The notes below the pieces were generated by a model that was not told the origin of the DNA, did no database searches, and saw nothing but the letters and a program-made list of their open reading frames with translations. From a virus (taxonomy: Duplodnaviria; Heunggongvirae; Uroviricota; Caudoviricetes), in the IMG/VR virus record IMGVR_UViG_651053022_000007, positions 28,836-92,835 of that record: a DNA stretch of 64,000 nt, one strand, 5' to 3'. Below, in pieces: positions 11,909 through 64,000 of this stretch. Each line of letters begins with the position of its first letter. Position 1 is the stretch's first letter. The position numbers and the translations under genes are program-made.

Positions 11909-12223
11909 GGTTTGCAATCACCAAATGGAGTGCTTATATTTACCTTTGCGGTAAATTTACAACGCACTCCTCTTGTGCCATAGTAATCGAGCACTGGCAA
12001 AATCCAGTGCCGGGATTGGCGTCCCGGATTACTAAAAGGCGCATTCACCGCGCAAGCGGTTTTTTTATGCGTATAGCACGGCCACATTCGTATTATGGTG
12101 GGCTGTGTGGGGGCACCGAAAGGTGCGCCGGGTCCTTTTAGCCGGTTACGCCAACCCTGCACAGTTCACCACCAACCGATTGGCGTCGGTAGTGGTGATT
12201 AACCAGACTAAAAGGTAACCACT

Positions 12224-34763: not shown

Positions 34764-35719
34764 TTCGCCTCCTGCGGCGGTTCCGGTAGCGGAATCCAGT
34801 GAGTTGCTTGCTCAATACCATTACCCGGCTTAATCGTTGCATCTCCGCGCCGAAAGGTGCTTCCGGTATAGCGTGCGGAGCATATTAGCGGCTCAACCAG
34901 ATCACTATCGAAATTCACCGAAATAAGTACGTTCTGATTCTTTTTCGGCATTCGCTCACTACAGCTTATCCAACCATCCGGAGTTACCGGAGTTGGTCCA
35001 TCGAATTCGGGCATGTCAGGACCTTTTCTGATAGCTTTAGCCAGCTCCAGCGGGTCATCGTAAAGCCAGTCGCCAGTTTGTGGGTGATTTGCTTCTGCAA
35101 GCTGCGCAGCCCATTCAAGACCATCTTTTTGACCTTGGAGATAATCAAGCGGCAACTCTTCATGATTACTTACAGGTTCGGCACCATGAAGCATGGCGCC
35201 GCTCCGCTCTATGCCATCCAGCGCGATTCGCAGTGCCTGAATTGTGGTAGAGCTATCGTTTGGGGCTATTCCATATCGCTCGAATACAGCTAAATGGTTG
35301 CGCATAATCTCAGGCGTAAGCTCTTTGTAAGCATAAGCAAGAGGCTCTGATGCATTATCCAGCACAACCGACGCAGGCGCGGCAGCATAAACAGGAATAA
35401 CGTCCGCTTGCTCTTTATTGCTTTCATCCGTTAAAGCCCAGAATAATTTCCCGGCCGGATGTTTGAAAATATAAGCAACTGGATCTGCTTCCAGCGATGC
35501 CAGCGCAATCCGTGCCAGTTCCATTTGTTCACCACGGGTAAGCCCGTTTTCAAGCGGGTTTTTAATGAACAATTCAATACGTTCTTTGGTAATAGTGGTC
35601 ATGACCCACTGCTTCCCCTGAAAGTCTGTAACGCCTTTTTTCACGTAGCGATATCGCCATGCCACTGGTTTTGCCTGCCCTGCCTTTTCATGCCCTTCCT
35701 GATAATTAATCTCGCTCAT
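34760..35719 (-). CDS. DUF551-like domain phage protein
   Basis: 319 aa; C-terminal DGWISCSERMPKK...VLIS segment resembles the DUF551 family. Confidence 0.5.
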   Translation of the reverse strand: MSEINYQEGHEKAGQAKPVAWRYRYVKKGVTDFQGKQWVMTTITKERIELFIKNPLENGLTRGEQMELARIALASLEADPVAYIFKHPAGKLFWALTDESNKEQADVIPVYAAAPASVVLDNASEPLAYAYKELTPEIMRNHLAVFERYGIAPNDSSTTIQALRIALDGIERSGAMLHGAEPVSNHEELPLDYLQGQKDGLEWAAQLAEANHPQTGDWLYDDPLELAKAIRKGPDMPEFDGPTPVTPDGWISCSERMPKKNQNVLISVNFDSDLVEPLICSARYTGSTFRRGDATIKPGNGIEQATHWIPLPEPPQEAK

Positions 35720-35751
35720 TCATCGCCCCACTCATCACAATATGCTTCGAC

Positions 35752-35884
35752 CGGTAGGCATGATAAGACGCGTCAGCGTCGCATCAGGCATCTGCGCACG
35801 GTGTCGGATGCGGCGCGAGCGCCTTATCCGACCTACGGTTCAGGCCTGTAGGCATGATAAGACGCGTCAGCGTCGCATCAGGCA
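35752..35884. repeat. two REP-like palindromic units
   Basis: GGCATGATAAGACGCGTCAGCGTCGCATCAGGCA occurs twice; resembles E. coli chromosomal REP elements. Confidence 0.55.
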
Positions 35885-37080
35885 ATTGATGTCTTAGGGC
35901 CGGAGAAACGCAGACGGCGTACCACACAGGAAAAGATCGCAATTGTTCAGCAGAGCTTTGAACCGGGGATGACGGTCTCCCTCGTTGCCCGGCAACATGG
36001 TGTAGCAGCCAGCCAGTTATTTCTCTGGCGTAAGCAATACCAGGAAGGAAGTCTTACTGCTGTCGCCGCCGGAGAACAGGTTGTTCCTGCCTCTGAACTT
36101 GCTGCCGCCATGAAGCAGATTAAAGAACTCCAGCGTCTGCTCGGCAAAAAAACGATGGAAAATGAACTCCTTAAAGAAGCCGTTGAATATGGGCGAGCAA
36201 AAAAGTGGATAGCGCACGCGCCCTTATTGCCCGGCCTGCTCGGCAAGAAAACGATGGAAAATGAACTCCTCAAAGAAGCCGTTGAATATGGACGGGCAAA
36301 AAAGTGGATAGCGCACGCGCCCTTATTGCCCGGGGATGGGGAGTAAGCTTAGTCAGCCGTTGTCTCCGGGTGTCGCGTGCGCAGTTGCACGTCATTCTCA
36401 GACGAACCGATGACTGGATGGATGGCCGCCGCAGTCGTCACACTGATGATACGGATGTGCTTCTCCGTATACACCATGTTATCGGAGAGCTGCCCACGTA
36501 TGGTTATCGTCGGGTATGGGCGCTGCTTCGCAGACAGGCAGAACTTGATGGTATGCCTGCGATCAATGCCAAACGTGCCGATGACTGGAAGGACGGCCGC
36601 CGCAGCCGTCACACGGATGATACGGATGTGCTTCGCCGTATACACCATGTTATCGGAGAGCTACCCACATATGGTTATCGTCGGGTATGGGCGCTGCTTC
36701 GCAGACAAACAGAACTTGATGGTATGCCTGCGATCAATGCCAAACGTGTTTACCGGATCATGCGCCAGAATGCGCTGTTGCTTGAGCGAAAACCTGCTGT
36801 ACCGCCATCGAAACGGGCACATACCGGCAGAGTGGCTGTGAAAGAAAGTAATCAGCGATGGTGCTCTGACGGGTTTGAGTTCCGCTGTGATAACGGAGAA
36901 AAACTGCGGGTCACGTTCGCGCTGGACTGCTGTGACCGTGAGGCACTGCACTGGGCGGTCACAACGGGTGGCTTCGACAGTGAAACAGTACAGGACGTCA
37001 TGCTGGGAGCAGTGGAACGCCGCTTTGGCAGCGAGCTTCCGGCGTCTCCAGTGGAGTGGCTGACGGATAATGGTTCATGC
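35885..37080 (+). mobile_element. IS2 remnant (5'-truncated orfA, 3'-truncated orfB, internal tandem duplications)
   Basis: orfA from codon 2 ([55 protein letters not shown]) and orfB to ..WLTDNGSC; 98-bp duplication at 36137-36333 and 170-bp duplication at 36407-36747. Confidence 0.8.
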
Positions 37081-37102
37081 CTCACCACTGAGCTAAAGGG
37101 CC
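37081..37102 (-). other. 22-nt fragment identical to the 5' end of the tRNA(CAT) at 58856..58931
   Basis: CTCACCACTGAGCTAAAGGGCC plus about 30 nt of shared flank. Confidence 0.5.
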
Positions 37103-37263
37103 GGGAGCAGAATAATAACGGTCCGTAATTAATTCCGCAATAAAAAACCCGCTCGGCGGCGGGTTGTAGAAACTCTTCTAACGTCAGGCATAAAAAGCCC
37201 ATTGTTATGACGAATTTACCACAGATTCCGGAAAAATCAACCTTGTTACCTAGTTACCTTTTT

Positions 37264-37452
37264 TAACTGCCGCTCAGCCCATGCTTCTTCAATATCAAAC
37301 CGGGTCACCAGCGCATCATAGAATTTCTTAACTGTTTTTTCCCATGACGCGCGTGTTATCTGGTTTGTCACCTCGCATATAGCATTAAATGCCTCCGTTG
37401 ATGGTAGTCTTTCATAGCCACGACCACCACAACGCTGGCAGTCTCTGATAAC
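37264..37452 (-). pseudogene. Q antiterminator 3' fragment
   Basis: about 80% identical by eye to the 3' end of the Q gene at 60606..61427 including its downstream flank. Confidence 0.5.
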
Positions 37453-37697
37453 ACGAAGCTAAGGTTGGTAATTAAGGAGTTCTCCACGGGTCAGGTGGAG
37501 TGCGTGCGCCGGACACGGGTGAACATCCGGCACTGACAGTTTACTGAAAGGATATGTCCCTGAAAAGTCAGGGCATAAAGCGAAAGCGCACGGCGAAATT
37601 GGTCTCTCTGTACGGTGTCGTTAAATTTAGTTCGACCGTGCGCTTCCGGTTGTGGCACTCCGCGAAATGGCGCGGCGGTAAGTATGGCGGGGTTATT

Positions 37698-37716
37698 CGG
37701 TTGGATCACCTCCTTA
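37698..37716 (+). rRNA. 16S rRNA 3'-terminal 19-nt fragment (start of an rrn spacer fragment)
   Basis: CGGTTGGATCACCTCCTTA, followed by spacer with tRNA-Ile and tRNA-Ala. Confidence 0.6.
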
Positions 37717-37784
37717 CCTTAAAGAAGCGTACTTTGAAGTGCTCACACAGATTGTCTGATGAAAATGAGCAGTAAAACCTCTAC

Positions 37785-37861
<77 letters not shown>

Positions 37862-37903
37862 AATTTGCACCGCAAATTTGAAGAGGTTTTAACTACATGT
37901 TAT

Positions 37904-37979
37904 GGGGCTATAGCTCAGCTGGGAGAGCGCCTGCTTTGCACGCAGGAGGTCTGCGGTTCGATCCCGCATAGCTCCACCA
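37904..37979 (+). tRNA. tRNA-Ala (anticodon TGC)
   Basis: GGGGCTATAGCTCAGCTGGGAGAGCGCCTGCTTTGCACGCAGGAGGTCTGCGGTTCGATCCCGCATAGCTCCACCA. Confidence 0.85.
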
Positions 37980-37994
37980 TCTCTGTAGTGATTA

Positions 37995-39193
37995 AATAAA
38001 AAAACGATATTGATTTCATCAAACTGCTCATCGTCCATTAACACTCCCGCATGCGTCAGCGCATCCAGCGGTGCTTTCAGGATATTGTCCAGGTCGCGAC
38101 GACGCTTATCCGGTGGCTCTGCAATCACCTTTATCGCCAGCCTTCCGGACAGGTTTAATTTCAGCCGCTGCTGGCGAACAATTAGCGCCACATCACGGCG
38201 ATAACGCTTTCCGGCCTCCGAGATGAAATACGTATTGCCATGACGTCGCCAGTAGGTATTCACCGTCGGCGGGTAAGGCAAAACAAATTCTATGCGTTCA
38301 GTCATACCTCCCAGGCCATGACCAATGATGTGATGCGGATCATCTGCCTGATTACCGCACGTCATGCATTTCTGCGTTTTTACCCAGCGCGTGTATACAG
38401 GCATCTCTTCCCGTTGTGGTTTCTGGCGCTGGAGATACTGAGCCGGAGACTCCGGATCAACGGCGATGCTTACTAACGTCTTTTCCTGGAGTGGGGGCTG
38501 TTGCTGGTGGACGTGAAGTGGCAGCGCAATATTTTTTGTGCGCTGCTTCAGTATGCTGGTGGCAGTCTGTTCTCCCGGTACGATGTCACTCTCACGGTAT
38601 ACGGAGCGGATTTTTTCCACCGGTAATCCCAGTGAACGACACAATACAGACTCCGGAAGCACATCAGCCACCTGATTGCAGACCGCCCACCAGGATAATT
38701 CGGCCAGCGATAACTCCCTCTCCTGCGTACCGCTGATTGCGTGACGGATGACGTCAATCATCCATGCTGACAAGTTTTGGTGAGCAAGTTGCTCAAGTGA
38801 TTCTGAGGTCTGGTCACACAACTGGTTGTCGCAGTGCCAGCACAACACCATTGCGCCGGTACCATAACGGTGAATGACGGTTTCACTGTGGTGATAATCA
38901 CCGTGTGGCCACTGGCAGGATTTAATATGGCGCAACAGCCAGTCAGACAGTGCACCAGCGCCGCCAGCAGCACGAATCACACGCTCATTGCTGAAAAATG
39001 GCAGTAATGATTTATCCTCCGCCAGCGGCTGGCGAACGGCAGGGACGACTCCGGATGGCAGGCCGCACATGCTTTTCGGTTCCGGCTCCACCAGCACTCG
39101 AGGATTATGAAATATCTGTATGGATTCACGGCCCGGCTTAAGGACCACCAGCCCAAGCTCAGGCACCAGAACAGGTCTAAGTAATACCCGCAC
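37995..39193 (-). pseudogene. YdfU-like (DUF968) :: RusA in-frame fusion remnant
   Basis: relative to intact copy at 61442..62860, about 62 codons at the YdfU/RusA boundary are missing (HGLGGM|TERIEFV) and rusA ends at EINIV; ORF 37889..39193 then reads through antisense tRNA-Ala. Confidence 0.6.
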
Positions 39194-39634: not shown

Positions 39635-39790
39635 TTACTCCTCAGGTTCGTAAGCTGTGAAGACAGCGACCTCCGTCTGGCCGGTTCGGATTCGTACCTC
39701 GCAGAGGTCTTTCCTCGTTACCAGTGCCGTCACTATGACGGTTAAACAGATGACGATCAGGGCGATTAACATCGCCTTTTGCTGCTTCAT
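39635..39790 (-). CDS. hokD: Hok/Gef-family type I toxin
   Basis: 51 aa MKQQKAMLIALIVICLTVIVTALVTRKDLCEVRIRTGQTEVAVFTAYEPEE; not in supplied track. Confidence 0.75.
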   Translation of the reverse strand: MKQQKAMLIALIVICLTVIVTALVTRKDLCEVRIRTGQTEVAVFTAYEPEE

Positions 39791-39807
39791 AGCCTGCTTC
39801 TCCTTGA

Positions 39808-40127
39808 CCTTTCGGTCCGTAAGAGGCTAATCTCTATGTGTCGCATAGATATGGCCTCAGATTAATGTTAAGCGTCTTGCAGGACGCGTAATGTTAACTG
39901 GGGCTTTTCTCTATCTGCCTTTTGGTGTTCATGCCTGAGACAGATAGCCTCAAGCACCCGCACCCTTGCCTTTCGGCACGTAAGAGGCTAACCTACATTT
40001 GTGAGACATAGATTGGGCCTCAGATTAATGTTAAGCGTCTTGCAGGACGCGAAATGTTAACTGGGGCTTTTCTCTATCTGCCTTTCAGTGTTCATGCCTG
40101 AGACAGATAGCCTCAAGCACCCGCAGC
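39808..40127. repeat. tandem direct repeat, 2 x about 160 bp, immediately upstream of hok
   Basis: units 39808-39968 and 39969-40127, a few percent diverged, each with internal palindromes. Confidence 0.6.
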
Positions 40128-41029: not shown

Positions 41030-41428
41030 CTAGTAACGTCTAAAATACCTAACATTTCCTTGATAAAATGCCAGTACACGCTGCATAGCTTCGCTCTTCC
41101 GGCACTCGCCGTCTGGTAACGACCAGATAAGGTCCGGATCAACCACTGCAGGTTTCTTCACCTTTGCCCTTGAGAGTTTTTTGCGAGCATTTTGCCAGTC
41201 CTTACGCGCCTGTTCAGACGGGAATAACCCGTAACCAGAGTTGTATACATCGCCACTGGCAACCAGCTCTCTGGCGAGAACACTCATCAGATATCTTGTC
41301 GCACCTGTCTTGGCTTCCAGTTGCCGCAACGTCTCGCGACCGCTCAGACGTACAAGTTCAACAACCTGCCCTTTAATTTTTTCCCGCTCTTCTTGTGTAA
41401 ATACTTTTGCCATAAGCGCCTCCGGCAA
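41030..41428 (-). CDS. hypothetical phage protein
   Basis: 132-aa ORF. Confidence 0.4.
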   Translation of the reverse strand: MPEALMAKVFTQEEREKIKGQVVELVRLSGRETLRQLEAKTGATRYLMSVLARELVASGDVYNSGYGLFPSEQARKDWQNARKKLSRAKVKKPAVVDPDLIWSLPDGECRKSEAMQRVLAFYQGNVRYFRRY

Positions 41429-42199
41429 TCACTTTTCCGATACAACACGGCGGGAAGAATCAGTAATCTGTCGAACAATATCCCGGTGCTTGTTCAGCTC
41501 CCGCAGCGCGGCGCAGACTCGCTCCCACTTCTGAACATCACTTTTCGCCCTGCGCAGCGCCAGGTTTGCCCTGCGAAGGGACGGAAAAATCAGCTCATCT
41601 GCTTGCGTTTCGGTAAACGATGGCAACGGCTGCACAATGTCCGCCACAGTTTCTGTTTTAATTTCTTCCTGTGTTGCGGCTTCCCGGACTGGTAACGCAG
41701 CACCTGCTGGCTGAGGAAAGGCCTTACCATCACTTTCCGTTACCAGCGCGGCTTTCGGCTCTGCTGGTAAATTATCGCCCGGCATGCAGTAACGAAATTT
41801 ACCGTTCTGATTAACGCGTGCCAGCCGCCCCGTTGCGGTTACCACCGCCAGCGTGGAAGCAACCTTGCGAGTACTGACACCGAACTTACCCGCCAGTTCC
41901 TCACACGTTTTAGCCCCATCCTGACCGATAAACTCAATCATCATGTCTGCGGTAACTTTTTGTTCGACCTCCCCGGTCAGCATATCCTGTGCTTCAGATT
42001 TTACTGGCCGCTCTTCGGTTACCCGGGATTCACCTTCGCCAGCCAGAAACCAGGTGTGACCAGTTTTATCAACGACGCCTTTTCTTTTGAGTTCCCACAG
42101 CTCGTTGACAGCCTCTTCACGACTGATTCCAAGGCGAGCTGCCACCACATGTGAAGAGGCTTTTTTCAGTGCTTTCAGTGCGTCAGATACGGTTTCCAT
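41429..42199 (-). CDS. DUF1627-like phage protein
   Basis: 256 aa; N-terminal HTH-like segment; downstream of DnaC-like gene. Confidence 0.45.
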   Translation of the reverse strand: METVSDALKALKKASSHVVAARLGISREEAVNELWELKRKGVVDKTGHTWFLAGEGESRVTEERPVKSEAQDMLTGEVEQKVTADMMIEFIGQDGAKTCEELAGKFGVSTRKVASTLAVVTATGRLARVNQNGKFRYCMPGDNLPAEPKAALVTESDGKAFPQPAGAALPVREAATQEEIKTETVADIVQPLPSFTETQADELIFPSLRRANLALRRAKSDVQKWERVCAALRELNKHRDIVRQITDSSRRVVSEK

Positions 42200-42220
42200 T
42201 AAAATTTCCTCCGGACAAAA

Positions 42221-42967
42221 TTACTTCACAACCCTCATATTGCTGACATTTGGACGCCAGCTATCCCAGTTAAACGTCACCCATCGACCACCGTTCATGG
42301 TCATGCGGTCCATAATCCTCTCACCAAGAAGCGTACTCATTGCGGCATGATTCAGGTTTGTTAACATCCCGACACTGCACAGTGATGCTGTCCGGCGATC
42401 AATTATCTGGTGCAATACCACCTGCTCGTTTTTCGTCTCCCGCTGAACGCCTATTTCATCCAGGACCAGCAAATCAACCCCGCAAAGCTCCTGTAAAAAT
42501 TTTTCCCCGGATTTGCCGTTGTCGTAGCTGTCATGCAACACGCTCATGACGTCAGACACGGTGACGATAATCACGCTGCGCCCCTTCACCATCAGCCGGT
42601 TGCCCATCGCCGCTGCAAGGTGATTTTTCCCGGTGCCGGTTTTACCGCTGAACACAAAATTCGTGCACCCGGTCATCAGTTCGTCAGCTATGGATTTGGC
42701 CTGGCTCAGCGCGTATTTTTGCCCGTCGTTCTGCACCTGATAATTTGCAAACGAGCATTTGCTGTGCAGAGGCTGGATGCCCGAACGATTCAGGATTTTT
42801 TCCACCCGCAACTGGCGATTCTGGCGGTTAATCTCCTCGCTGCGTTTTCGTCCTTCAGCAAGTTGCCATTCCCGCCACTCCTCCACCGTCCGGTACGGTG
42901 GAACCGACCCCTGTGGTGCAAGTCTGCGAATACGTTCAAGAACCCCAACTGCCGCAATGTTTTTCAT
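42221..42967 (-). CDS. DnaC-like replication ATPase (helicase loader)
   Basis: 248 aa; Walker A GKTGTGKNHLAAA and Walker B LLVLDEIG. Confidence 0.7.
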   Translation of the reverse strand: MKNIAAVGVLERIRRLAPQGSVPPYRTVEEWREWQLAEGRKRSEEINRQNRQLRVEKILNRSGIQPLHSKCSFANYQVQNDGQKYALSQAKSIADELMTGCTNFVFSGKTGTGKNHLAAAMGNRLMVKGRSVIIVTVSDVMSVLHDSYDNGKSGEKFLQELCGVDLLVLDEIGVQRETKNEQVVLHQIIDRRTASLCSVGMLTNLNHAAMSTLLGERIMDRMTMNGGRWVTFNWDSWRPNVSNMRVVK

Positions 42968-43023
42968 GACACGTCACCCCCTGAATCCCGGCGGTATTTC
43001 AGTGTCCGGTTCAGAAATGTGAT

Positions 43024-45093
43024 TCACGCAACGCGGGGTTCCAGGGTCACCCACTGTGGAATGAGGCCAAAATGCTGCGGCCAGAAGCTGATGCGCTGTT
43101 CATCAGGGACTATGGTGGCAACCAGTTGTTGCAGGCCAGTCTCCGGTGCACAGGCCGAAGAGGTGGTGTTCTGAGCATCATCTAACGGGATTTCATCGGT
43201 CATAATGGCAGATTGCGCTTCGCGTGATTGCTTAAGCCACCATTTAATGGTGTCCCGATCAATGACTCCGCCAGCAGTTTCCAGATCGATAGTCTTACTA
43301 AATTCCGGTCCCATATCTCCGGTTTGCGGATCGAAAAATATTGCATCTATTGAGATAATCGGGGCATCAGGATTTTTTCCCATGGTTTCAAGGTCAATCA
43401 TCAGATGGTGCCACAACCTGCTGGTGGATGTGCTTTTACGATGACTGTTCACCTTAATTAAGGGATTTGCTGTCTCGCCTATTTCATTATTGTCATTGGC
43501 ATGTTGATCGCCTTCGGTGCACTCCTTGTTCGGGAGTCCGGCATTTTCTATTTCCTCTGGATCTTTTTCCCGGGCTTCATCCTGGCTTTCTTCGTTGAAT
43601 GTCTCCTGGTAGGTTGCGTCACCCATCACTGCGCCACAATCAGGGCAGTTACCACCACCAGTCTGATTGCATGCGGTACAAACTTTTTCCTCTTCCTGTT
43701 GCACGACTGGTTCAGGTTGTTTCGTTTCTGGCTCGTTTTGTAACGCATTTTGGCTGTTTTGTTCCGCTTTTTGGTCGTACTGTTCCGTTTCTGACTGGTT
43801 CTGGTGCACAGAATCGCGGGTTTCAATCCCCTTCACCCATTTCGGATCATTCGGGTCGCTAATCCCTTCAACAAATTCACCACGTGATGCAGCGAGCAAC
43901 TTATTAGCGTCAGGCTGGCTGATACTGGCTGCCTGCATAATTTTGTTTACTTCGTCAGCGGTAACTTTTACCAGGTCTGGTTGTGCGGTCGTGTCAGATG
44001 CATCAGTATTTTGTTGTGAACCTGTGTATGTGCCGTTTTTGCGGGCAAAATATTCTTCTTTCGTGATTTCAGTTGCCCCGGCAGCCAGCGCCTTATCCAG
44101 ACCAGAAAGTTTGTTTGCGCGACCGTATTTTTCGCCATCCTTGTCGGTGAAGAGGAAGTAGAACGGCCCCTCACGCTCTACAGATGGTTCGACTTCCACT
44201 TTGCATTCGGTTTTTTCGTTGTCCGGAATTGCCGTTTCCACTGCATCAGTTTCTGGTACTGGCGACGAGAGAGTATCAGTTGCGCTCTGATTTCTTCCTT
44301 CATCTTCAAACACGCCCTTTGTAGTCAGGTATTCAGTAATGTATTTGTTCAGTGCCACAGGGTCTTTGTGAATGTCGATCGGACGTTCACGGACAAGGCC
44401 AAAAATAGTCTGGCGGTCGTAGCGAAGGGCATCAGGCTGTTTGCGCATTGATGCCGAGATACGCTTCCAGTCTTCGCGGTCGTTGTCGATAACTTCTTTT
44501 TTTGCCCAGCGATGGATGCTGCCGTCAATGTTTCCGGCATCCACATCACCAGGCCAGAGAGCGTAGGCCAGTTCGTCATCCAGTGTTTTCCATGTCTGCT
44601 TGTATTCGCGATGAATGGCAGCAATGACCGGGCTGATTTTTCCTGTTGAATTTTCAGTGTACTGTTGATTGGCTCTGGCGCGGGCGAGATCAACAACAGA
44701 CGTGTATTTTCCGGTTTCCTTGCGTTCACCTTCACGACGTTTTTTCCAGATGCGCATCTCTGCCTGAATTTCGGGCCATTTGGCACCAGGCTTACATTTA
44801 TGCTTAACCCACCCGATGGCATGCAGCTTAAGCTCCGGATACATGGCGTTAACTTCTGGCATTTTCATCAACGCTTCAACGATATGTCCGTCGAATGTTG
44901 CCATGTCTTCCTGCAACAATTCCTGTGCGCTAATAACCATATCAACGGTGATGTTTTCACATGTGTCGAACTTAACCATGACAGCGTTCTGTACTTCAGG
45001 GGCCAGCTTGTCAAAAGTGACGTTCATCGGATCGGATTCAGTCTCAACCGGGACAAAAGAAGCAGACTCCTCATCCCAGCGGTTTTCCTGCAT
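43024..45093 (-). CDS. chimeric exonuclease ORF: RecE-like central region plus DEDD 3'-5' exonuclease domain
   Basis: 689 aa; KLLAASRGEFVEGISDPNDPKWVKGI and CTACNQTGGGNCPDCGAVMGDATYQETF match RecE middle region; C-terminal IDLETMG exo-I-like motif. Confidence 0.45.
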   Translation of the reverse strand: MQENRWDEESASFVPVETESDPMNVTFDKLAPEVQNAVMVKFDTCENITVDMVISAQELLQEDMATFDGHIVEALMKMPEVNAMYPELKLHAIGWVKHKCKPGAKWPEIQAEMRIWKKRREGERKETGKYTSVVDLARARANQQYTENSTGKISPVIAAIHREYKQTWKTLDDELAYALWPGDVDAGNIDGSIHRWAKKEVIDNDREDWKRISASMRKQPDALRYDRQTIFGLVRERPIDIHKDPVALNKYITEYLTTKGVFEDEGRNQSATDTLSSPVPETDAVETAIPDNEKTECKVEVEPSVEREGPFYFLFTDKDGEKYGRANKLSGLDKALAAGATEITKEEYFARKNGTYTGSQQNTDASDTTAQPDLVKVTADEVNKIMQAASISQPDANKLLAASRGEFVEGISDPNDPKWVKGIETRDSVHQNQSETEQYDQKAEQNSQNALQNEPETKQPEPVVQQEEEKVCTACNQTGGGNCPDCGAVMGDATYQETFNEESQDEAREKDPEEIENAGLPNKECTEGDQHANDNNEIGETANPLIKVNSHRKSTSTSRLWHHLMIDLETMGKNPDAPIISIDAIFFDPQTGDMGPEFSKTIDLETAGGVIDRDTIKWWLKQSREAQSAIMTDEIPLDDAQNTTSSACAPETGLQQLVATIVPDEQRISFWPQHFGLIPQWVTLEPRVA

Positions 45094-45109
45094 ATATTCA
45101 GCATCCCAG

Positions 45110-45281
45110 GAATCGAGGGCAGGGCGGGGTATACCGGGTTTATCCTCGCAGACAAGAAATTTATAAGCGCAGTCCTGAGCAGCCGGATAATGTTTGAATC
45201 GAGGGCAGGGCGGGGTATGCCAGGTTTATCCTCGCAGACAATAAATTTATAAGCGCAGTCCTGAGCAGCCGGATAATGTTT
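45110..45281. repeat. tandem direct repeat, 2 x 86 bp
   Basis: units 45110-45195 and 45196-45281 with 3-4 mismatches, just upstream of the 43024..45093 start. Confidence 0.5.
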
Positions 45282-45573
45282 TTTCGGTTTTAAACGTTTT
45301 GCTTTTGGTATACGTCATCGCGGTGAATGTGCCGTCCTGGTTGGGAAACACGCCGTACACCAGAGATTCGTTGTTGCCAAGATCGATAGTATCCATGTTG
45401 ACCTCATTTCCCCTTAACGCCGGGGTAGCGGAACAAAAACCTGCTGCATAGTTATTAAAGTTGATTCAATTTTCAGCTTGATCCAGATTTTTAAAGAGCA
45501 AATATCTCAAACATCACCCGAAGATGAGTTTTGAGATATTAAGGCAGGTGACTTTCACTCACAAACCAGCAAG

Positions 45574-45649
45574 TGGCGTCCCCTAGGGGATTCGAACCCC
45601 TGTTACCGCCGTGAAAGGGCGGTGTCCTGGGCCTCTAGACGAAGGGGAC
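45574..45649 (-). tRNA. tRNA-Glu (anticodon TTC)
   Basis: reverse complement reads GTCCCCTTCGTCTAGAGGCCCAGGACACCGCCCTTTCACGGCGGTAACAGGGGTTCGAATCCCCTAGGGGACGCCA. Confidence 0.85.
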
Positions 45650-45734: not shown

Positions 45735-46781
<1,047 letters not shown>

Positions 46782-46982
46782 TAAAATAGTGGTAAGCGTA
46801 CAGCCTGAACCGTCTGGTCAGAATCTGACTGAACAAATCCCTGCCATTGCTGGCATATAAGAATGAAACCGGATATTTATTACGGAACTGTTTTAAAGAC
46901 CTGCCGGGATTTCGTTATTATCCTGGTGAATAACTTTATCGACCGGGTAACAGTTACCGGGAATTTTCTGTTCGGTTGCTGC

Positions 46983-47103
46983 GCACCAGAAAATCATTGA
47001 TATGGCCATGAATGGCGTCGGATGTTGCGCCAGTGCACGCATTATGGGCGTTGGCCTCAACACTGTTTTACGTCACTTAAAAAACTCAGGCCGCAGTCGG
47101 TAA
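46983..47103 (+). mobile_element. IS1 internal fragment (diverged)
   Basis: GCACCAGAAAATCATTGATATGGCCATGAATGGCG...CTCAGGCCGCAGTCGGTAA. Confidence 0.55.
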
Positions 47104-47355
47104 TCGCTTACGAACCGAAGAAGTAGCCGTTGTGCGGGGAGCAATCCCCGCATATCCGGTTGTCAGGTCAGGGTGGTAAGGCACCTGCTTTACACTTTCG
47201 CCCGCGGTCAGTGATGGCTGCGGGCGACCGTCTCCCGTTATCCGGAAGCTGACAACAATAAAAAAGCCACCAGTTAACTACTGATGGCTCTGATAACTCA
47301 TGCAAGCGTCTCAGACGATCCACTGACACTACCGGTGAGTTTAACGATACCTTCC

Positions 47356-47422
47356 ATTCTGTATTCTGGTCATTTGTTGATACCCTTACATAGCCAATCA
47401 GCACACTGAATCTCCCGTCCAA
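47356..47422 (-). pseudogene. DNA invertase (Pin/Gin/Hin family) N-terminal fragment
   Basis: MDGRFSVLIGYVRVSTNDQNT then unrelated sequence. Confidence 0.55.
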
Positions 47423-54701: not shown

Positions 54702-54861
54702 ATGACAGTGAAAATTTCTGGCGTGCTTAAAGATGGCACAGGAAAACCAGTACAGAACTGCACCATTGTGCTGAAGGCCAGACGAACCAGCAGCACGGTG
54801 GTGGTGAACACGGTGGCCTCTGAAAATCCGGATGAAGCCGGACGTTACAGCATGGATGTAC
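54702..54861 (+). pseudogene. side tail fibre (Stf) N-terminal fragment
   Basis: [53 protein letters not shown] matches lambda Stf N-terminus; cut by IS1 fragment. Confidence 0.65.
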
Positions 54862-54982
54862 GCACCAGAAAATCATTGATATGGCCATGAATGGCGTTGG
54901 ATGCCGGGCAACAGCCCGCATTATGGGCGTTGGCCTCAACACGATTTTACGTCACTTAAAAAACTCAGGCCGCAGTCGGTAA
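54862..54982 (+). mobile_element. IS1 internal fragment
   Basis: GCACCAGAAAATCATTGATATGGCCATGAATGGCGTTGGATGCCGGGCAACAGCCCGCATTATGGGCG...GCAGTCGGTAA. Confidence 0.6.
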
Positions 54983-55276
54983 CGAAAACCTGCTGTACCG
55001 CCATCGAAACGGGCACATACAGGCAGAGTGGCCGTGAAAGAAAGCAATCAGCGATGGTGCTCTGACGGGTTCGAGTTCTGCTGTGATAACGGAGAGAGAC
55101 TGCGTGTCACGTTCGCGCTGGACTGCTGTGATCGTGAGGCACTGCACTGGGCGGTGACTACCGGCGGCTTCAACAGTGAAACAGTACAGGACGTCATGCT
55201 GGGAGCGGTGGAACGCCGCTTCGGCAACGATCTTCCATCGTCTCCAGTGGAGTGGCTGACGGATAATGGTTCATGC
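54983..55276 (+). mobile_element. IS2 orfB internal fragment
   Basis: ...[45 protein letters not shown]...WLTDNGSC, ending at the same codon as the copy at 37080. Confidence 0.7.
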
Positions 55277-55669
55277 ACCATAAAGATTGTTTACGATGAA
55301 AATAATATTATTGTTGCCATAACCAAAGATGCCTCCACACTTAACCCTGAAGGTTATAGCGTCGTTGAGATTCCTGATATTACCGCCAACCGGCGTGCTG
55401 ACGACTCAGGTAAATGGATGTTTAAAGATGGCGCAGTCATTAAACGTGTATATACCGAAGAAGAGTTGCGCCTACAGACGGAAAACCAGAAAAAAATATT
55501 ATTACAGCAGGCCAGAGAAAAAACGCAGTTCTGGCAAACACAGCTTACTTTGGGGATTATCACTGATTCAGACAGACAGCAACTGATGAACTGGATGCGA
55601 TACGTGCAACAGGTTGAGACAACTGATACCTCGGTTCTTCCTGTAACATTCCCGGAACCACCAGAATAA
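55277..55669 (+). pseudogene. tail fibre assembly protein fragment fused behind IS2 fragment
   Basis: ...[28 protein letters not shown]...[11 protein letters not shown]. Confidence 0.55.
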
Positions 55670-57393: not shown

Positions 57394-57668
57394 CGCACTG
57401 GTTGTCTGAAAACTGGACTGACTGGTTCACTGTATGCGGCATCTTGTCGTGCTGGTGGTGGAAGCCTAGAAAAAGTATCGGGTGTTACTGAACCGTGTTG
57501 ATACATCAACTGCACCTGATATTGAGTGGCCTACGAACCCTGTCAGGGAGTAATCATTGGGATTATGCCGCAGCACGTCTTAAGCAAGAACGTGCTGCGG
57601 TTGGATGCTATTTTTTCCCTGAAGCGGAAAACATTACTAGTATATTTACACTGACTCACACAGGCATC

Positions 57669-57854
57669 ATGCTCAATAACAAAGTGCTACCTGTAACCAT
57701 TTACAACGTAGTACCATTCAATAAAACATTCTGGAATTTAATCAAAAACAGCCAGGAATGCCCTACAAATACAGATAACGTATTGAATGAATGCTTTAAT
57801 AACCGTTGCACTCTGCAAATATGTCCTTATGGACTAAAACAACAAAGTCCATAA
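57669..57854 (+). CDS. small Cys-rich hypothetical protein (61 aa), AT-rich
   Basis: [15 protein letters not shown]...[26 protein letters not shown]; stop lies in a hairpin. Confidence 0.3.
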
Positions 57855-58134
57855 GGAGTTTACTCACATCTGACAAAATCAATATAAACAGCCCCTCCGG
57901 AGAGGGGCTGGAGAGTGGCGCTATGTGCCATTGCATGGTGCCGGGTGCCTCCCGGTGAATTCAGTACCAGCACCTGAATCCGCGATTATCCCATATACCT
58001 ACTCGCTGATTGCCCCTCCGCACAGGGGGATTCACCATGCCAGTTTCTTTTAACAAACTCCCCGCAAACCAGACAACAATCAACCGCCTGAATTGTGAAG
58101 TATTTAAAAATTTCTCCCGCTAACTGATACCCGG

Positions 58135-58221
58135 CTAACAGTCTGGCGTTTTCTTTTTCAGCAACGGGAAAGCAACAACCACCACACCCGCCACCAGCAC
58201 ACCGTCAGCCAGCACTGACAT
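58135..58221 (-). CDS. 28-aa hydrophobic peptide, start overlapping upstream stop (TAATG)
   Basis: MSVLADGVLVAGVVVVAFPLLKKKTPDC. Confidence 0.2.
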   Translation of the reverse strand: MSVLADGVLVAGVVVVAFPLLKKKTPDC

Positions 58222-58568
58222 TATCCGGCTGCCCGAAGTTCATCCATACCACAGGTCCTGGCTATTCTGTTGTACTCCTGAACAAGAGTAAATAATTCTG
58301 AATTAGCCACCATGAACTCATCGCAAACCCTCTGTATAGCATCACTATTCAGAATAATAACGTCTCTTCCCGAAAGACGATCAGGAGTACAGAACAAAAC
58401 TGTCAAACGGCTGAAGGCCTTTGCTCGTGCTGCATTGACTATATCAATACGCTGCCTAAGGATGAAACACCCCGACGCCTCATCAATATTCACTCTACCC
58501 ACACCATATGAATGATAAATATTTAATGCTGAAAAAACCATTAGACCGTATAACAAACACTCAATCAA
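58221..58568 (-). CDS. hypothetical protein, AT-rich cargo downstream of tRNA pair
   Basis: 115-aa ORF in low-GC DNA. Confidence 0.35.
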   Translation of the reverse strand: MIECLLYGLMVFSALNIYHSYGVGRVNIDEASGCFILRQRIDIVNAARAKAFSRLTVLFCTPDRLSGRDVIILNSDAIQRVCDEFMVANSELFTLVQEYNRIARTCGMDELRAAG

Positions 58569-58681
58569 TACTTAACAGAACTTTTATTTTTGACAAACAT
58601 AAAATATTTTCAACAATATCCTGAGCCAGGTATATTTCAGTATAAGGCTCTGCCGGAAGGAATCTGGAAGAATGAATATAG

Positions 58682-58755
58682 CGCGCTGTACTGGATTCGA
58701 ACCAGTGACCGATTGCTTAGAAGGCAATTGCTCTGTCCGGCTGAGCTAACAACGC
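58682..58755 (-). tRNA. tRNA-Arg (anticodon TCT), no encoded CCA
   Basis: reverse complement GCGTTGTTAGCTCAGCCGGACAGAGCAATTGCCTTCTAAGCAATCGGTCACTGGTTCGAATCCAGTACAGCGCG folds as cloverleaf. Confidence 0.7.
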
Positions 58756-58855
58756 TGAATACCGATAATGGACCGCCATCGGGGACCCGCCCCCGCACCA
58801 ACAACCCTGTTATCGTGTCGTCTGCTCTTCCTGATAAGCTAATGGCGGTTTGTGA

Positions 58856-58931
58856 TGGTGGCCCTTGCTGGATTTGAACCAGCGACCTGGCGATTATGAG
58901 TCGCTCGCTCTCACCACTGAGCTAAAGGGCC
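58856..58931 (-). tRNA. tRNA with CAT anticodon (Ile2/lysidine-type or Met)
   Basis: reverse complement GGCCCTTTAGCTCAGTGGTGAGAGCGAGCGACTCATAATCGCCAGGTCGCTGGTTCAAATCCAGCAAGGGCCACCA. Confidence 0.8.
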
Positions 58932-58980
58932 GGGAGCAGAATAATAATGGTGCGTAATTAATTCTGCAATCTCATCCGTT

Positions 58981-60030
58981 TCAAACGATTAAACCCTGAA
59001 CTTCCCTGACTGTCTGCTCAAAACGTCCGGTCTCCAGCTCAACGCCAATCGCACGACGCCCGAGCGCCAGTGCCGCTTTTACCGTTGAACCTGAGCCCAT
59101 AAAAAAATCTGCAACCAGGTCACCCGGACGACTGCTTGCGCTGATTATCTGCTGCAGCATTTCTGCCGGTTTTTCGCACGGATGTTTCCCGGGATAGAAC
59201 TGCACCGGTTTATGTGTCCACACATCCGTGTACGGCACCTGCGCCGTCACACCAAAATACCGCCGCAGATGCTTATATTCACTCTGCAGCTCCACATACT
59301 GCCGGTTCAGTGACGTATACGTATCCACCAGCTGGTGGTGGGGCTTTTCCAGTTCACCGCGCTGATGTTTCTCTTCTGCCACCCGGGCAAACAGCGACTG
59401 TAATTTCAGATAATCGCTTTCGTTCGGTAGCTGCCACTGACTGGCACTGAACCAGTGCGACACCATGTTTTTCTTTCCTGTGGCATCTGCAATCTGTTTT
59501 GCCGTTATCCCCAGGGCCGCGCGCGCATCACGAAAGTAAGAAATCAGCGGGGCCATCACATGCTGTTTCAGTGCACTGCCCTTCGCCGCATACCCGGCAT
59601 CTTTCGGACGATACGGCCCCTGATAATGTTCCGCGAACAGAATGCGCTCTGTGGCGGGGAAATACGCCCGCAGGCTTTCCTTGTTGCATCCGTTCCAGCG
59701 TCCGGACGGCTTCGCCCAGATAATATGGTTCAGCACACTGAAGCGTTCACGCATCATGATTTCGATATCAGATGCCAGGCGATGACCACAGAACAGGTAA
59801 AGACTTCCGGCAGGTTTCAGCACCCGCCAGAACTGCGCCAGACACTGGTCCAGCCACTTCAGGTAATCATCGTCGCCCTTCCACTGGTTATCCCAGCCCT
59901 CAGGCTTCACTTTAAAGTACGGCGGGTCCGTGACTATCAGGTCAACAGAATTTTCGGGTAACGACCGGATAAATTCCAGGCAGTCGGCGTTGATTAACTC
60001 ACAACTGGATATTTTTACAGTATTAGCCAT
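58981..60030 (-). CDS. DNA methyltransferase (N6-adenine/N4-cytosine class, DPPY motif)
   Basis: 349 aa; DLIVTDPPYF and FFMGSGST motifs. Confidence 0.75.
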   Translation of the reverse strand: MANTVKISSCELINADCLEFIRSLPENSVDLIVTDPPYFKVKPEGWDNQWKGDDDYLKWLDQCLAQFWRVLKPAGSLYLFCGHRLASDIEIMMRERFSVLNHIIWAKPSGRWNGCNKESLRAYFPATERILFAEHYQGPYRPKDAGYAAKGSALKQHVMAPLISYFRDARAALGITAKQIADATGKKNMVSHWFSASQWQLPNESDYLKLQSLFARVAEEKHQRGELEKPHHQLVDTYTSLNRQYVELQSEYKHLRRYFGVTAQVPYTDVWTHKPVQFYPGKHPCEKPAEMLQQIISASSRPGDLVADFFMGSGSTVKAALALGRRAIGVELETGRFEQTVREVQGLIV

Positions 60031-60181
60031 AGATCAATAAGCACTTCTCTGATAGGCTCATACCGCTTTTGCGCAAAGCAGATGGGCCTGAGGTTTGCTT
60101 GTGACCCCAACGCATGAGCAGATGGCTGGTGGGTGCCCCTAACACCCACCAGCCGCCCATTTACCACAAATAAAAAAGCCT

Positions 60182-60379
60182 TCACTGCGGAAGGCGTCTG
60201 TAACAACCGAACTGATAGTCTGCCAGACCCGCCATAACCAGCTGGGTCAGTATTAACTGGCAGCGTTCGCGTGAAAGGTAAGTATTCTGCGCAATCTCCC
60301 CGGCTGTCGCCGGTTCGGTGACGCTTAATTCATTAAACACCACTCTGGCGGTTTCTGTCATATCCTGCTGTTTCAGCAT
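60182..60379 (-). CDS. small hypothetical protein
   Basis: likely start MLKQQDMTE within ORF 60182..60466. Confidence 0.3.
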   Translation of the reverse strand: MLKQQDMTETARVVFNELSVTEPATAGEIAQNTYLSRERCQLILTQLVMAGLADYQFGCYRRLPQ

Positions 60380-60605
60380 GTCTTTTTCCCTTTTCCGGTT
60401 AACGTGACACACCAATAACTCTTGTCGAAAAAGCCAGCAAGCTGAAAGACAGGTATTCACCGCCACCAGCGCGTTTACTGTACTGACGCGATTTCAGTCA
60501 TAAAAAACCCGCCAGGCGGCGGGGTGTAAAAAATCTTCTAACGTCAGGCATAAAACGCCCATCGTTAGAGCAAATTTACCACAGATTCGGGAAAAATCAA
60601 CAACA

Positions 60606-61427
60606 CTATCGCGTTACCCTCTTTAACTGCCGCTCCGCCCATGCCTCTTCAATGTCAAACCGAACCACCAACGTATCGTAAAAGCGTTTCACTGATTTTT
60701 TCCACGTATCAAGCGTGATAGCACTCGTCACTTTGCATATGGCATTAAATGCCTCCGTTGATGGTAGTCTTTCACAGCCACGACCACCACAACGCTGGCA
60801 GTCTCTGATAACAGGCATACCACGTTTTACCGACTCTTCACGATGAATGGCGACACCACGCCCACGGCAATCCTTACAGGCGGTGGAAACCTCACCCTTT
60901 CCGCCACACTCCGGACAGGCAACTTTTACCACTTCCTTGACTTTTTTCCATTCTTCCCAGTAAGACGAATACACACCTTTCGTACACTTTGCCCATACCG
61001 GCGGCTTACCATCCGGATACTGGACCTTGTTTGTAAAAACTACGCTTTCAATAAATTTTTCCCCATAGCAACAAGGGCACTGCTTTTTACTCGCTACGCT
61101 GCGGGCATAATCCTCAAAAGCGTACGAAGCCATAATGCGCATCACTACCGGTTTTATTTCTGCCGGAAGTTTTCTCAACGCCGCCACACGATCGCACCGA
61201 CTGAGTGCATAATCTGCCAGTAATTCTGTTGCCCGCGCCCTGTCATTCATACTGATGCCCATTTTCCCCAGGAACGCAGAAAACCCCATCTCAGCCCGAT
61301 TCTGTGTCATGCCCTGCGCGGCCATCACATCAGTGATACTCAGCGCATCTTTCGACGTTGAGGCCGATGCATCAGTCAGGCCGGGGGATTTTGGGGAGTA
61401 GTATTTCGGTAAATCTTCCAGTTTCAT
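60606..61427 (-). CDS. lambda-type late antiterminator Q
   Basis: 273 aa; similar to lambda Q (FHSPKSP-like YYSPKSP, DVMAA.GM, ASYAFEDYARS, Cys clusters, C-terminal TWKKSVKRFYDTLVV). Confidence 0.75.
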   Translation of the reverse strand: MKLEDLPKYYSPKSPGLTDASASTSKDALSITDVMAAQGMTQNRAEMGFSAFLGKMGISMNDRARATELLADYALSRCDRVAALRKLPAEIKPVVMRIMASYAFEDYARSVASKKQCPCCYGEKFIESVVFTNKVQYPDGKPPVWAKCTKGVYSSYWEEWKKVKEVVKVACPECGGKGEVSTACKDCRGRGVAIHREESVKRGMPVIRDCQRCGGRGCERLPSTEAFNAICKVTSAITLDTWKKSVKRFYDTLVVRFDIEEAWAERQLKRVTR

Positions 61428-61441
61428 TTTTTGACCTGCTC

Positions 61442-61804
61442 TTAATGCATTATGGGGTAAATCTTCACCCCCAGACGTCCACCAGATACTGGCTGACCAC
61501 GAACGATATTGATTTCATCAAACTGCTCATCGTCCATTAGCAACCCCGCATGCGTCAGCGCATCCAGCGGCGCTTTCAGAATATTGTCCAGATCACGGCG
61601 GCGCTTATCCGGTGGTTCTGCAATAATTTTTATTGCCAACCTTCCGGACAGGCTTAATTTCAGCCGCTGCTGGCGAACAATAAGCGCCACTGCCCGGCGA
61701 TAACGCTCCCCGGCTTTTGATACAAAATATGTGCTGCCACGACGACGCCAGTAAGTGTTCACCGTTGGCGGGTAAGGCAAAACAAATTCTATGCGTTCAG
61801 TCAT
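61442..61804 (-). CDS. rusA: RusA Holliday junction resolvase
   Basis: 120 aa; LPYPPTVNTYW...PDKRRRDLDNILKAPLDALTHAG. Confidence 0.8.
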   Translation of the reverse strand: MTERIEFVLPYPPTVNTYWRRRGSTYFVSKAGERYRRAVALIVRQQRLKLSLSGRLAIKIIAEPPDKRRRDLDNILKAPLDALTHAGLLMDDEQFDEINIVRGQPVSGGRLGVKIYPIMH

Positions 61805-62860
61805 TCATGCTTTCCACTTCAGGACACCCGAATTTCTCGCGTGCATTAAAAAACGAATCAGCAACAACAGCTGGCTGCCGTGTTTTTCTTCAAAATCTTT
61901 TACCCCGGCGTGCAGTTCGTTATGACATTTACGGCACAGCGGAATAACAAACAAATCATCAGCCTTTGTTCCCATCCCTCCCAGTCCATGACCAATGATG
62001 TGATGCGGATCATCTGCCTGATTGCCACACGTCATGCATTTCTGCGTTTTTACCCAACGCGTGTATACAGGCATCTCTTCCCGTTGTGATTTCTGGCGCT
62101 GGAGATACTGAGCCGGTGACTCCGGATCAACGGCAATGCTGACCACCGTCTTTTCCTGTGGCGGGTTTTGCTGGTGGGCGTGAGGCAGCGGCGCAAGATT
62201 TTTTGTGCGCTGCTTCAGTATGCTGGTGGCGGTCTGCTCTCCCGGTACGATGTCGCTTTCACGGTACATTGAGCGGATTTTTTCCGCACGCAACCCCAGC
62301 GAACGACGTAATACCGCTTCCGGTAGCGCGTCCGCCACCTGATTGCGGACCGCCCACCAGGATAATTCAGCCAGCGATAATTCCCGTTCCTGCGAGCCAT
62401 TCATTGCATGGCGTATGACGTCAATCATCCATGCAAACAGGTTTTGGTGAGCAAGTTGCCCGAGTGATTCGGAGGTCTGGTCGCGCAGCTGGTTGTCGCA
62501 GTGCCAGCACAACACCATTGCGCCGGTACCATAACGGTGAATGACGGTTTCACTGTGGTGATAATCGCCGTGTGGCCACTGGCAGGATTTAACATGGCGC
62601 AGTAACCAGTCAGACAATGCGCCAGCGCCACCAGCAGCACGAATCACTCGTTCGTCGCTGAAAAATGGCAGTAATGATTTATCCTCCGCCAGCGGCTGGC
62701 GAACGGCAGGAACGACCCCGGACGGCAGATTACGCATGCTTTTCGGTTCCGGCTCCACCAGTACCCGGGTATTGTGGAATACCGGCATGGATTCACGGCC
62801 CGGCTTAACGATCACCAGCCCGAGTTCCGGTACCAGAACAGGTCGAAGTAATACCCGCAC
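61805..62860 (-). CDS. YdfU-like (DUF968) protein with HNH-like C-terminal Cys/His motif
   Basis: 351 aa; CMTCGNQADDPHHIIGHGLGG...IPLCRKCHNELHAG. Confidence 0.6.
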   Translation of the reverse strand: MRVLLRPVLVPELGLVIVKPGRESMPVFHNTRVLVEPEPKSMRNLPSGVVPAVRQPLAEDKSLLPFFSDERVIRAAGGAGALSDWLLRHVKSCQWPHGDYHHSETVIHRYGTGAMVLCWHCDNQLRDQTSESLGQLAHQNLFAWMIDVIRHAMNGSQERELSLAELSWWAVRNQVADALPEAVLRRSLGLRAEKIRSMYRESDIVPGEQTATSILKQRTKNLAPLPHAHQQNPPQEKTVVSIAVDPESPAQYLQRQKSQREEMPVYTRWVKTQKCMTCGNQADDPHHIIGHGLGGMGTKADDLFVIPLCRKCHNELHAGVKDFEEKHGSQLLLLIRFLMHARNSGVLKWKA

Positions 62861-63174
62861 GTTACCTCCAGATGCGTTGCTGGAATGTGCGGGACGGACG
62901 CGGTGGGCGTTCAGAGTAAGGAAGCCTGACGGAGATTATCCAGTGACGATAATCGAGGCTGAGGGCTTTCTTAATCTCGTATCCGCGTCTGCGGTAGTTA
63001 TGAATTAGCCATTCGGCCTGTTCTTCAGTACATGGTGGGTGTTGCGTGCCGGTGATTACCGCGCTCCGGGATCACTGGCCGGAATGATTGAACAGGCCTG
63101 GTGCAGTGCCCTGGGGGTGGATGCCGGATGCCATGCCACGCTGGTGCATTTTCCGGCCTGGCCGGCACACCGGG

Positions 63175-63270: not shown

Positions 63271-63320
63271 TGTCCCTGCCTCCATTCAGTCGATGATGCG
63301 CATAATGGCGCTGCATTGAG

Positions 63321-63427
63321 CTGCTGGAAACGCAGACCGTGGACTTCAGCGTGGGTGCTGAAGGGCTTCGCCATGTACCGGGGGATGTCATTGAAATCTG
63401 CGATGATGACTATGCCGGTATCAGCAC
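63321..63427 (+). pseudogene. J-like internal fragment, second copy
   Basis: same ~110 bp as 46614-46732 ([35 protein letters not shown]). Confidence 0.5.
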
Positions 63428-63675
63428 ATTGATGTCTTAGGGCCGGAGAAACGCAGACGGCGTACTACACAGGAAAAGATCGCTATCGTTCAGCAGAGCT
63501 TTGAACCGGGAATGACGGTCTCCCTTGTTGCCCGGCAACATGGTGTGGCAGCCAGCCAGCTATTTCTCTGGCGTAAGCAATACCAGGAGGGAAGTCTTAC
63601 TGCTGTGGCTGCCGGAGAACAGGTCATTCCTGCCTCTGAACTTGCTGCCGCCATGAAGCAGATTAAAGAACTCCA
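63428..63675 (+). mobile_element. IS2 orfA fragment, 5'-truncated at codon 2
   Basis: [84 protein letters not shown]; same start point as 35885. Confidence 0.7.
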
Positions 63676-63790
63676 GCGCCAGAAGTTAACGCCATGTATC
63701 CGGAGCTTAAGCTGCACGCCATTGGGTGGGTTAAGCATAAATGTATTCCTGGTGCTAAATGGCCCGAAATTCAGGCAGAGATGCGCATCT

Positions 63791-64000
63791 GGAATTGAAG
63801 GCTGGCAAGAAGGTAAATTAGAAGGTTTGCAGCAAGGTAAATTGGAGGGTTTGCAGAAAGGTAAATTAGAAGGTTTGCAGGAAGGCATGCATGAGCAAGC
63901 CATTAAAATTGCCTTGCGCATGCTGGAGCAGGGCTTTGAACGTGAGATTGTGCTGGCGGCAACCCAACTCACTGATGCTGATATTCCGAACTGTCATTAA
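63791..64000 (+). pseudogene. Rpn (YhgA-like) nuclease family C-terminal fragment
   Basis: GKLEGLQ repeats then [33 protein letters not shown] stop. Confidence 0.4.

Follow-up and report, generated by a model that had tools for sequence, protein, structure and literature searches.

Annotation of the DNA analyzed here, a stretch of 64,000 nucleotides (to be referred to as the window), raises the question of whether it contains a rearranged, chimeric exonuclease gene. The initial annotation had described a 689-aa open reading frame of this kind, preceded by a two-copy 86-bp repeat and by a 49-codon reading frame that may be its displaced N-terminus, with about 110 bp of its 5′ region dispersed to a second position on the opposite strand. 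The four sequence features are located as follows, and none of them is a chance match.

43024-45093, minus strand: 689-aa reading frame
45247-45396, minus strand: 49-codon reading frame (MDTIDLGNN...)
45110-45195 and 45196-45281: directly adjoining 86-bp copies, with 97% identity (3 mismatches)
63678-63794: reverse complement of 44744-44860 in a pairwise comparison, with 112 of 117 positions identical

Every one of these features sits at or across a join of unrelated assembly pieces. Their bases are not contiguous in a genome, and the premise of contiguity fails. The locus as described is not a real feature. It is an artefact in which sequence that is not contiguous was combined with a gene of a known family. 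Almost certainly, it is the product of assembly or concatenation, with contigs or graph branches generated at k = 39 from a strain that carries two or more related prophages and placed end to end.

Composition of the window and of the two reading frames

Two lambdoid prophages of ST131-type E. coli are used here for comparison, prophage A at ompW (reference sequences L001 and L002) and prophage B at tRNA-Ser/mtfA (reference sequence L003). In local BLAST searches against these three sequences, the window from about 35-37 kb on is a patchwork of pieces that are close to 100% identical to one prophage or the other. Pieces of A and B alternate, with identities of 99.9-100%, and rRNA-spacer and genomic-island fragments are found between them. 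The pieces at the locus, and the one that carries the distant match, are the following.

41106-43034, minus strand: prophage-A piece that includes the genes for a DUF1627 protein and a DnaC-like ATPase, plus 60 nt from the end of the O-like gene; 100% identity to L002 37528-39456 (PF07789, PF01695)
43035-43174, minus strand: fragment of about 140 bp from the 5′ part of a genomic-island gene for an antirestriction protein; 98.6% identity to 'antirestriction protein' genes in complete genomes
43175-45194, minus strand: internal 2,020 bp (codons 46-720 of 823) of the prophage-A exonuclease gene of the YdfE family; 99.9% identity to L001 4001-6020
45195-45280, minus strand: 86-bp prophage-B allele of the end stretch of the preceding piece; 100% identity to L003 23161-23076 and 96.5% to prophage A
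45281-45464, minus strand: 184-bp prophage-B piece with codons 1-38 of ydfA (DUF1391) and its upstream region; 100% identity to L003 21485-21302
45465-45754, minus strand: rRNA-operon spacer fragment with a tRNA-Glu gene at 45574-45649 (ARAGORN)
63678-63794, plus strand: 117-bp prophage-B allele of the exonuclease gene, covering codons from about 78 to 116 of the reading frame; 100% identity to L003 23410-23526

The reading frame of 689 residues runs through three of these pieces. In a translation comparison, its residues 1-641 correspond to residues 80-720 of an 823-aa reference protein. Residues from about 642 to 686 are encoded by the antirestriction-gene fragment, which is in frame by chance (phrog_10132 matches residues 656-688), and the piece at 41106-43034 contributes the three final residues together with the stop codon, through 11 bp adjoining the DnaC-like gene. 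The C-terminus had been taken for an exonuclease domain. The beginning of the PF16473 domain is indeed located there, but the last 47 residues are not exonuclease and belong mostly to the antirestriction-gene fragment. This fragment (43035-43174) has no match in prophage A or prophage B by local BLAST. An origin from the O-like replication gene, as a variant of its 3′ end, was also considered for it, and was rejected on the basis of its identity to antirestriction genes and its match to phrog_10132.

The exonuclease portion of the reading frame is itself incomplete. It keeps just positions 1-84 of the 177 in the PF16473 profile, corresponding to Exo I (IDLET), and covers positions 80-720 of 823 in the full-length PHROG 2082 architecture. 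Exo II and Exo III are absent from the window copy because the assembly piece ends there. On the other side, the piece at 43175-45194 lacks the first 136 nt of the gene, in addition to its last 316 nt. The true reading frame is open upstream to the end of the piece (…HYPAAQDCAYKFLVCEDKPG…). The real N-terminus of the exonuclease, MSKVFICAAIPDE…, is absent from the window, as are the last 103 residues. The window contains an internal part of the gene for a YdfE-family member, not a complete member, and an exact-protein look-up found no gene on record for the 689-aa product.

The 49-codon reading frame is not the displaced N-terminus of the exonuclease, which has the different sequence given above. 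It is ydfA of prophage B, cut at codon 39, and matches positions 1-38 of the 48 in the PF07151 (DUF1391) profile. Its last 10 residues are read out of the ydfA piece into the 86-bp exonuclease piece. The two 86-bp copies are present as bases, with their 3 mismatches, but they are not a duplication, being the allele of prophage A followed by that of prophage B. Similarly, the match at 63678-63794 is real, but it is not a dispersed copy. It is the prophage-B allele of the same segment, with 38-nt identical flanks.

In the spacer fragment located directly upstream of the 49-codon reading frame, which is sequence of an E. coli rRNA operon, the 16S gene is represented by just about 19 nt of its 3′ end. 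A second fragment, at 37697-38002, contains a tRNA-Ile/tRNA-Ala spacer (37785-37979), and the two fragments have in common a 40-nt end (37697-37736) made up of the 16S 3′ end and the spacer start. Both are typical isolated spacer-variant contigs. Despite these tRNA-Glu and tRNA-Ile/Ala spacer fragments, there is no rRNA family match anywhere in the window. Spacers of rRNA operons amid prophage genes, with no rRNA genes, are not a natural arrangement.

Several other regions of the window were characterized. Two tandem matches to the sok antitoxin RNA (Rfam RF01794) are found at 39788-39959 and 39960-40122. They flank the join 39962/39963, at which a prophage-B piece (L003 15178-16837) ends and a prophage-A piece (L002 36343-37489) begins, and the tandem sok is an artefact of one allele placed beside the other, as with the 86-bp repeat. 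Two prophage-A pieces at 57639-63044, about 5.4 kb in total, extend from the region of the DUF3927 gene as far as the DUF968 gene, with 99-100% identity to L002. They include tRNA-Arg (58681-58755), tRNA-Met (58856-58931) and a match to the STnc100 sRNA (57880-58069), and appear to be ordinary late-regulatory sequence of a prophage. Positions 1-25000 belong to a different prophage, with matches annotated as SLT transglycosylase, endosialidase/tail fibre, RecT and PD-(D/E)XK nuclease, and with matches to the isrK and C4 antisense RNAs at 11991-12176. This part is largely contiguous in complete genomes (for example strain 4/0, 99.9% over 18 kb), and these first 25 kb or so look like genuine contiguous sequence.

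The 38-nucleotide signature at the piece ends

The ends of the pieces follow a rule. Among the 20 piece ends for which prophages A and B could be compared, 12 run 38 or 39 nt into sequence that is identical in the two prophages, and the identity goes on past the end of the piece. The terminal 38-mers of the pieces around the 689-aa reading frame occur in both prophages. For the 86-bp piece a terminal 38-mer is common to A and B, and for the 184-bp piece (45281-45464) the 38 nt at either end are common to them.

The same length is obtained in a test that makes no use of the references. The window contains 44 maximal exact repeats of at least 25 nt, of which 17 are 38 nt long and four are 39-40 nt, while none is longer than 78 nt, although parts of two prophages that have long identical stretches in common are present. 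In the control, made of the two natural prophages in direct succession, a length of 38 nt is found for 2 of 115 repeats, 28 exceed 78 nt, and the longest has 1,070 nt. Moreover, the alignment of 63678-63794 with 44744-44860 consists of 38 identical bases, 41 bases with 5 mismatches and another 38 identical bases, the layout that an alternative bubble branch has when k = 39. A value of k = 77, considered from the 153-bp piece (2k-1), was discarded. That piece is bounded by mismatches between A and B, and the consistent overlap is 38 nt.

Additional exact repeats of 38 nt link the regions 35600-37700, 46600-47400, 54860-55320 and 63300-63800 with one another. These repeats indicate further small allele pieces, examples of which are a 153-bp ydfD piece (46830-46982) and a 131-bp piece (47228-47358). 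Features called in these four regions call for equal caution.

De Bruijn graph assembly of short reads produces allelic bubble branches and collapses repeats. The overlap of 38 nt at the ends and the missing long repeats are the signature of such an assembly at k = 39. As in contig sets of this kind, the pieces in the window extend at their ends k-1 = 38 nt into shared sequence, long exact repeats are missing, shared sequence of at least 39 nt is present once only, the 117-bp piece has the 38 + 41 + 38 layout, and the rRNA spacer variants are isolated small pieces. Unlike in such sets, the pieces in the window abut without spacers and in no evident order.

In the model proposed here, short reads from an E. 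coli strain that carries two or more closely related lambdoid prophages would have been assembled in a de Bruijn graph with k = 39. Where A and B differ, each allele would have become a small piece of its own, and stretches identical over at least 39 nt would have been collapsed. Every piece would end 38 nt inside shared sequence because the alleles split and identical sequence of 39 nt or more collapsed. The contigs or graph branches would then have been written consecutively, without spacers. Reading through the joins would give the apparent 689-aa gene (the interior of the exonuclease gene, the antirestriction-gene fragment and some bases from a third piece), the tandem 86-bp repeat (in fact the prophage-A allele and then the prophage-B allele) and the dispersed inverted copy (in fact an alternative bubble branch). 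The identities of the pieces, the 38-nt rule, the lack of the joins in other sequences and the domain content are direct results of the analysis. The kind of assembler, the existence of the pieces as separate records before joining, and their joining either in the record or later are inferred.

Some observations count against this model. The 86-bp piece has a left end (45195-45232) that prophage A does not share, and that does not fit a case with two alleles; the model needs a third paralogue here, which is considered likely, or a break in coverage. At the 43175 end, the window allele is identical to L003 for 171 nt, and this join fits the model only when an L002-type allele is taken for comparison. 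In addition, pieces of 86-184 bp are below the size that most public archives take as contigs, and no rule was found in the order of the pieces.

Occurrence of the joins and alternative explanations

The segment 42900-45560, which also crosses the join 45194/45195, was compared by megablast with 5,426 complete E. coli genomes. It is found there only as three separate pieces, in the arrangement of the reference prophages. The matching sequences are common, with a median of 11 places per genome, and 2,414 of the 5,426 genomes have a place that covers at least 80% of the query. For the join region 43034-43175 and for the join 45280/45281, on the other hand, no place with at least 80% coverage exists in these genomes. 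Exact patterns across 45194/45195 and 45280/45281 have 0 matches in the GTDB genome collection (two patterns), the JGI metagenomes and IMG/VR. The initial annotation had asked for confirmation of this region by long reads, aptly so, as the joins occur in no complete genome.

The reference prophages show how far apart the joined segments are located. In L001, the best match (at ompW), the gene order is int, xis, exonuclease (823 aa), ydfD, dicB, ydfC, ydfB, ydfA, cI-like, cro, ydaT, O-like, DnaC-like and DUF1627. The exonuclease gene and ydfA are separated by 1.6 kb (ydfD, dicB, ydfC and ydfB). The DnaC-like gene lies about 4 kb away and is encoded in the opposite orientation. A simple deletion from ydfB to ydfD, as the origin of the join between ydfA and the exonuclease gene, was also considered and rejected, since this join lies in prophage-B sequence beside a prophage-A contig and is found in no genome.

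The arrangement could be real if recombination between prophages, together with deletions, had brought ydfA together with an 86-bp segment present in duplicate and cut the exonuclease gene short at the antirestriction fragment, leaving a decayed, pseudogenised region. E. coli genomes do contain numerous lambdoid prophages that resemble one another (median of 11 places per genome, as noted above) and are able to recombine, and ydfE of K-12 is itself a truncated copy of the exonuclease gene. However, all of the rearrangements would have to end exactly 38 nt inside sequence identical in A and B, fragments of rRNA spacers would have to sit amid prophage pieces with no rRNA genes, and all sequence longer than 78 nt shared by A and B would have to be gone from a region with parts of both prophages. 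With the joins tested present in 0 of 5,426 complete genomes, such a history is extremely improbable. Less probable still is a true tandem duplication of 86 bp in the 5′ part of the exonuclease gene, frameshifting and inactivating it in a region that is otherwise contiguous. The copies are directly adjoining and 97% identical, as would be expected of a duplication, but the second copy is 100% identical to the L003 allele, from a different prophage, and the first is the prophage-A allele. Moreover, the second copy is followed by ydfA, which is 1.6 kb away in every reference, in place of the 136 nt that would complete the gene. The duplicated arrangement is present in 0 of the 5,426 complete genomes and has 0 exact matches in the three public collections.

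A different origin of the joins would be a single chimeric contig instead of several contigs written one after the other, made by an assembler or a scaffolder that took wrong paths through repeat nodes. This would be consistent with the lack of N spacers between the pieces, with the several pieces that are shorter than the usual minimum length of contigs, and with the match of the first 25 kb or so to one prophage region in complete genomes. It is nonetheless unlikely, as neighboring pieces have no overlap of the graph type; those at 45195-45280 and 45281-45464, for example, are 1.6 kb apart in prophage B. The consequence would be the same, with joins that are not biological.

Under the preferred explanation, separate contigs or branches placed end to end, the importance of the locus is mainly that of a warning. 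From about 35 kb on, the window is not contiguous genome sequence, and reading frames, repeats and gene neighborhoods that cross piece boundaries are unreliable, for example the tandem sok copies (39788-40122) and the spacer fragments that bear tRNA genes. The gene beneath the artefact is a common, already annotated prophage exonuclease.

The YdfE-family exonuclease and its relatives

The intact gene is found in the reference prophage (L001 3685-6156) rather than in the window. It is the exonuclease gene of the early left operon, located between xis and ydfD/dicB, and encodes a protein of 823 aa, the intact form of the pseudogene ydfE in the K-12 Qin prophage. The first 255 residues of the reference protein are 98% identical to K-12 ydfE, a pseudogene that adjoins IS2E in the annotation. 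The N-terminal region of the protein contains no known domain, and is followed by a RecE-like center with a CxxC...CPDC motif and by a C-terminal DEDD domain. It matches the PHROG 2082 'exonuclease' profile over its full length (1-823), and PF16473 is complete in residues 641-813 (positions 1-177 of 177, 221.8 bits), with the GANFD and HNALDD motifs present.

The initial annotation was right for the family, therefore, in its description of a RecE-like center and a C-terminal DEDD domain (PF16473), but this is the normal architecture of a common 823-aa protein, not a local chimera. The composite is conserved, annotated and widespread among prophages, and not a local fusion. Residues 1-641 of the window reading frame are residues 80-720 of the 823-aa protein of this family (PHROG 2082; WP_089564729.1, WP_016230610.1; K-12 Qin ydfE, b1577). 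In comparison with the intact members, the window copy is missing 45 codons at the start and 103 at the end (the latter with Exo II and Exo III), and its tail is foreign.

The central region resembles that of RecE (exodeoxyribonuclease VIII) of the Rac prophage. In a BLASTP comparison with K-12 RecE, residues 262-625 of the L001 protein align with residues 278-591 of RecE (38% identity, E = 2e-56), and are nearly identical over the last 150 or so aligned residues, which include the CxxC...CPDC motif. The two genes also have the same position in the early left operon, adjoining xis/int. The protein differs from RecE in having no match to the C-terminal nuclease domain of the latter (residues 606-866). 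The NCBIfam model NF007259 is matched at positions 271-602 of 877 only, with 253-254 bits against a cut-off of 1,269, which places the protein outside the RecE family as defined by this model. In the reference prophages, the exonuclease gene has no recT beside it (the order is xis, exonuclease, ydfD and dicB), whereas recT is located beside recE in Rac.

The intact 823-aa protein is a natural composite of a RecE-type scaffold and a DexA-like nuclease. It might represent an exchange of modules, in which the 5′-3′ nuclease domain of the scaffold was replaced by a 3′-5′ domain like that of T4 DexA, giving a prophage-encoded nuclease that would act, like EcD (see below), against modified phage DNA and not in recombination. 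This is an unlikely reading, and nothing in the window bears on a defence-like role of the YdfE family.

A search of the literature on Rv2179c-type exonucleases of prophages found no papers. A stand-alone DexA homolog of E. coli, EcD ('HREX' defence), is reported to defend against T4 by degrading 5hmC DNA (PMC12153337). The full-length YdfE-family protein is similar to the Rv2179c-like/T4 DexA group of DEDD 3′-5′ exonucleases, with an E value of 1e-7 against T4 DexA (PDB 8KEL), and in this alignment IDLET is matched with IDFET, and GANFD with GMSFD. In contrast to the stand-alone DexA type, of about 200 aa, the PF16473 domain of the YdfE family is located at the end of an 823-aa protein.
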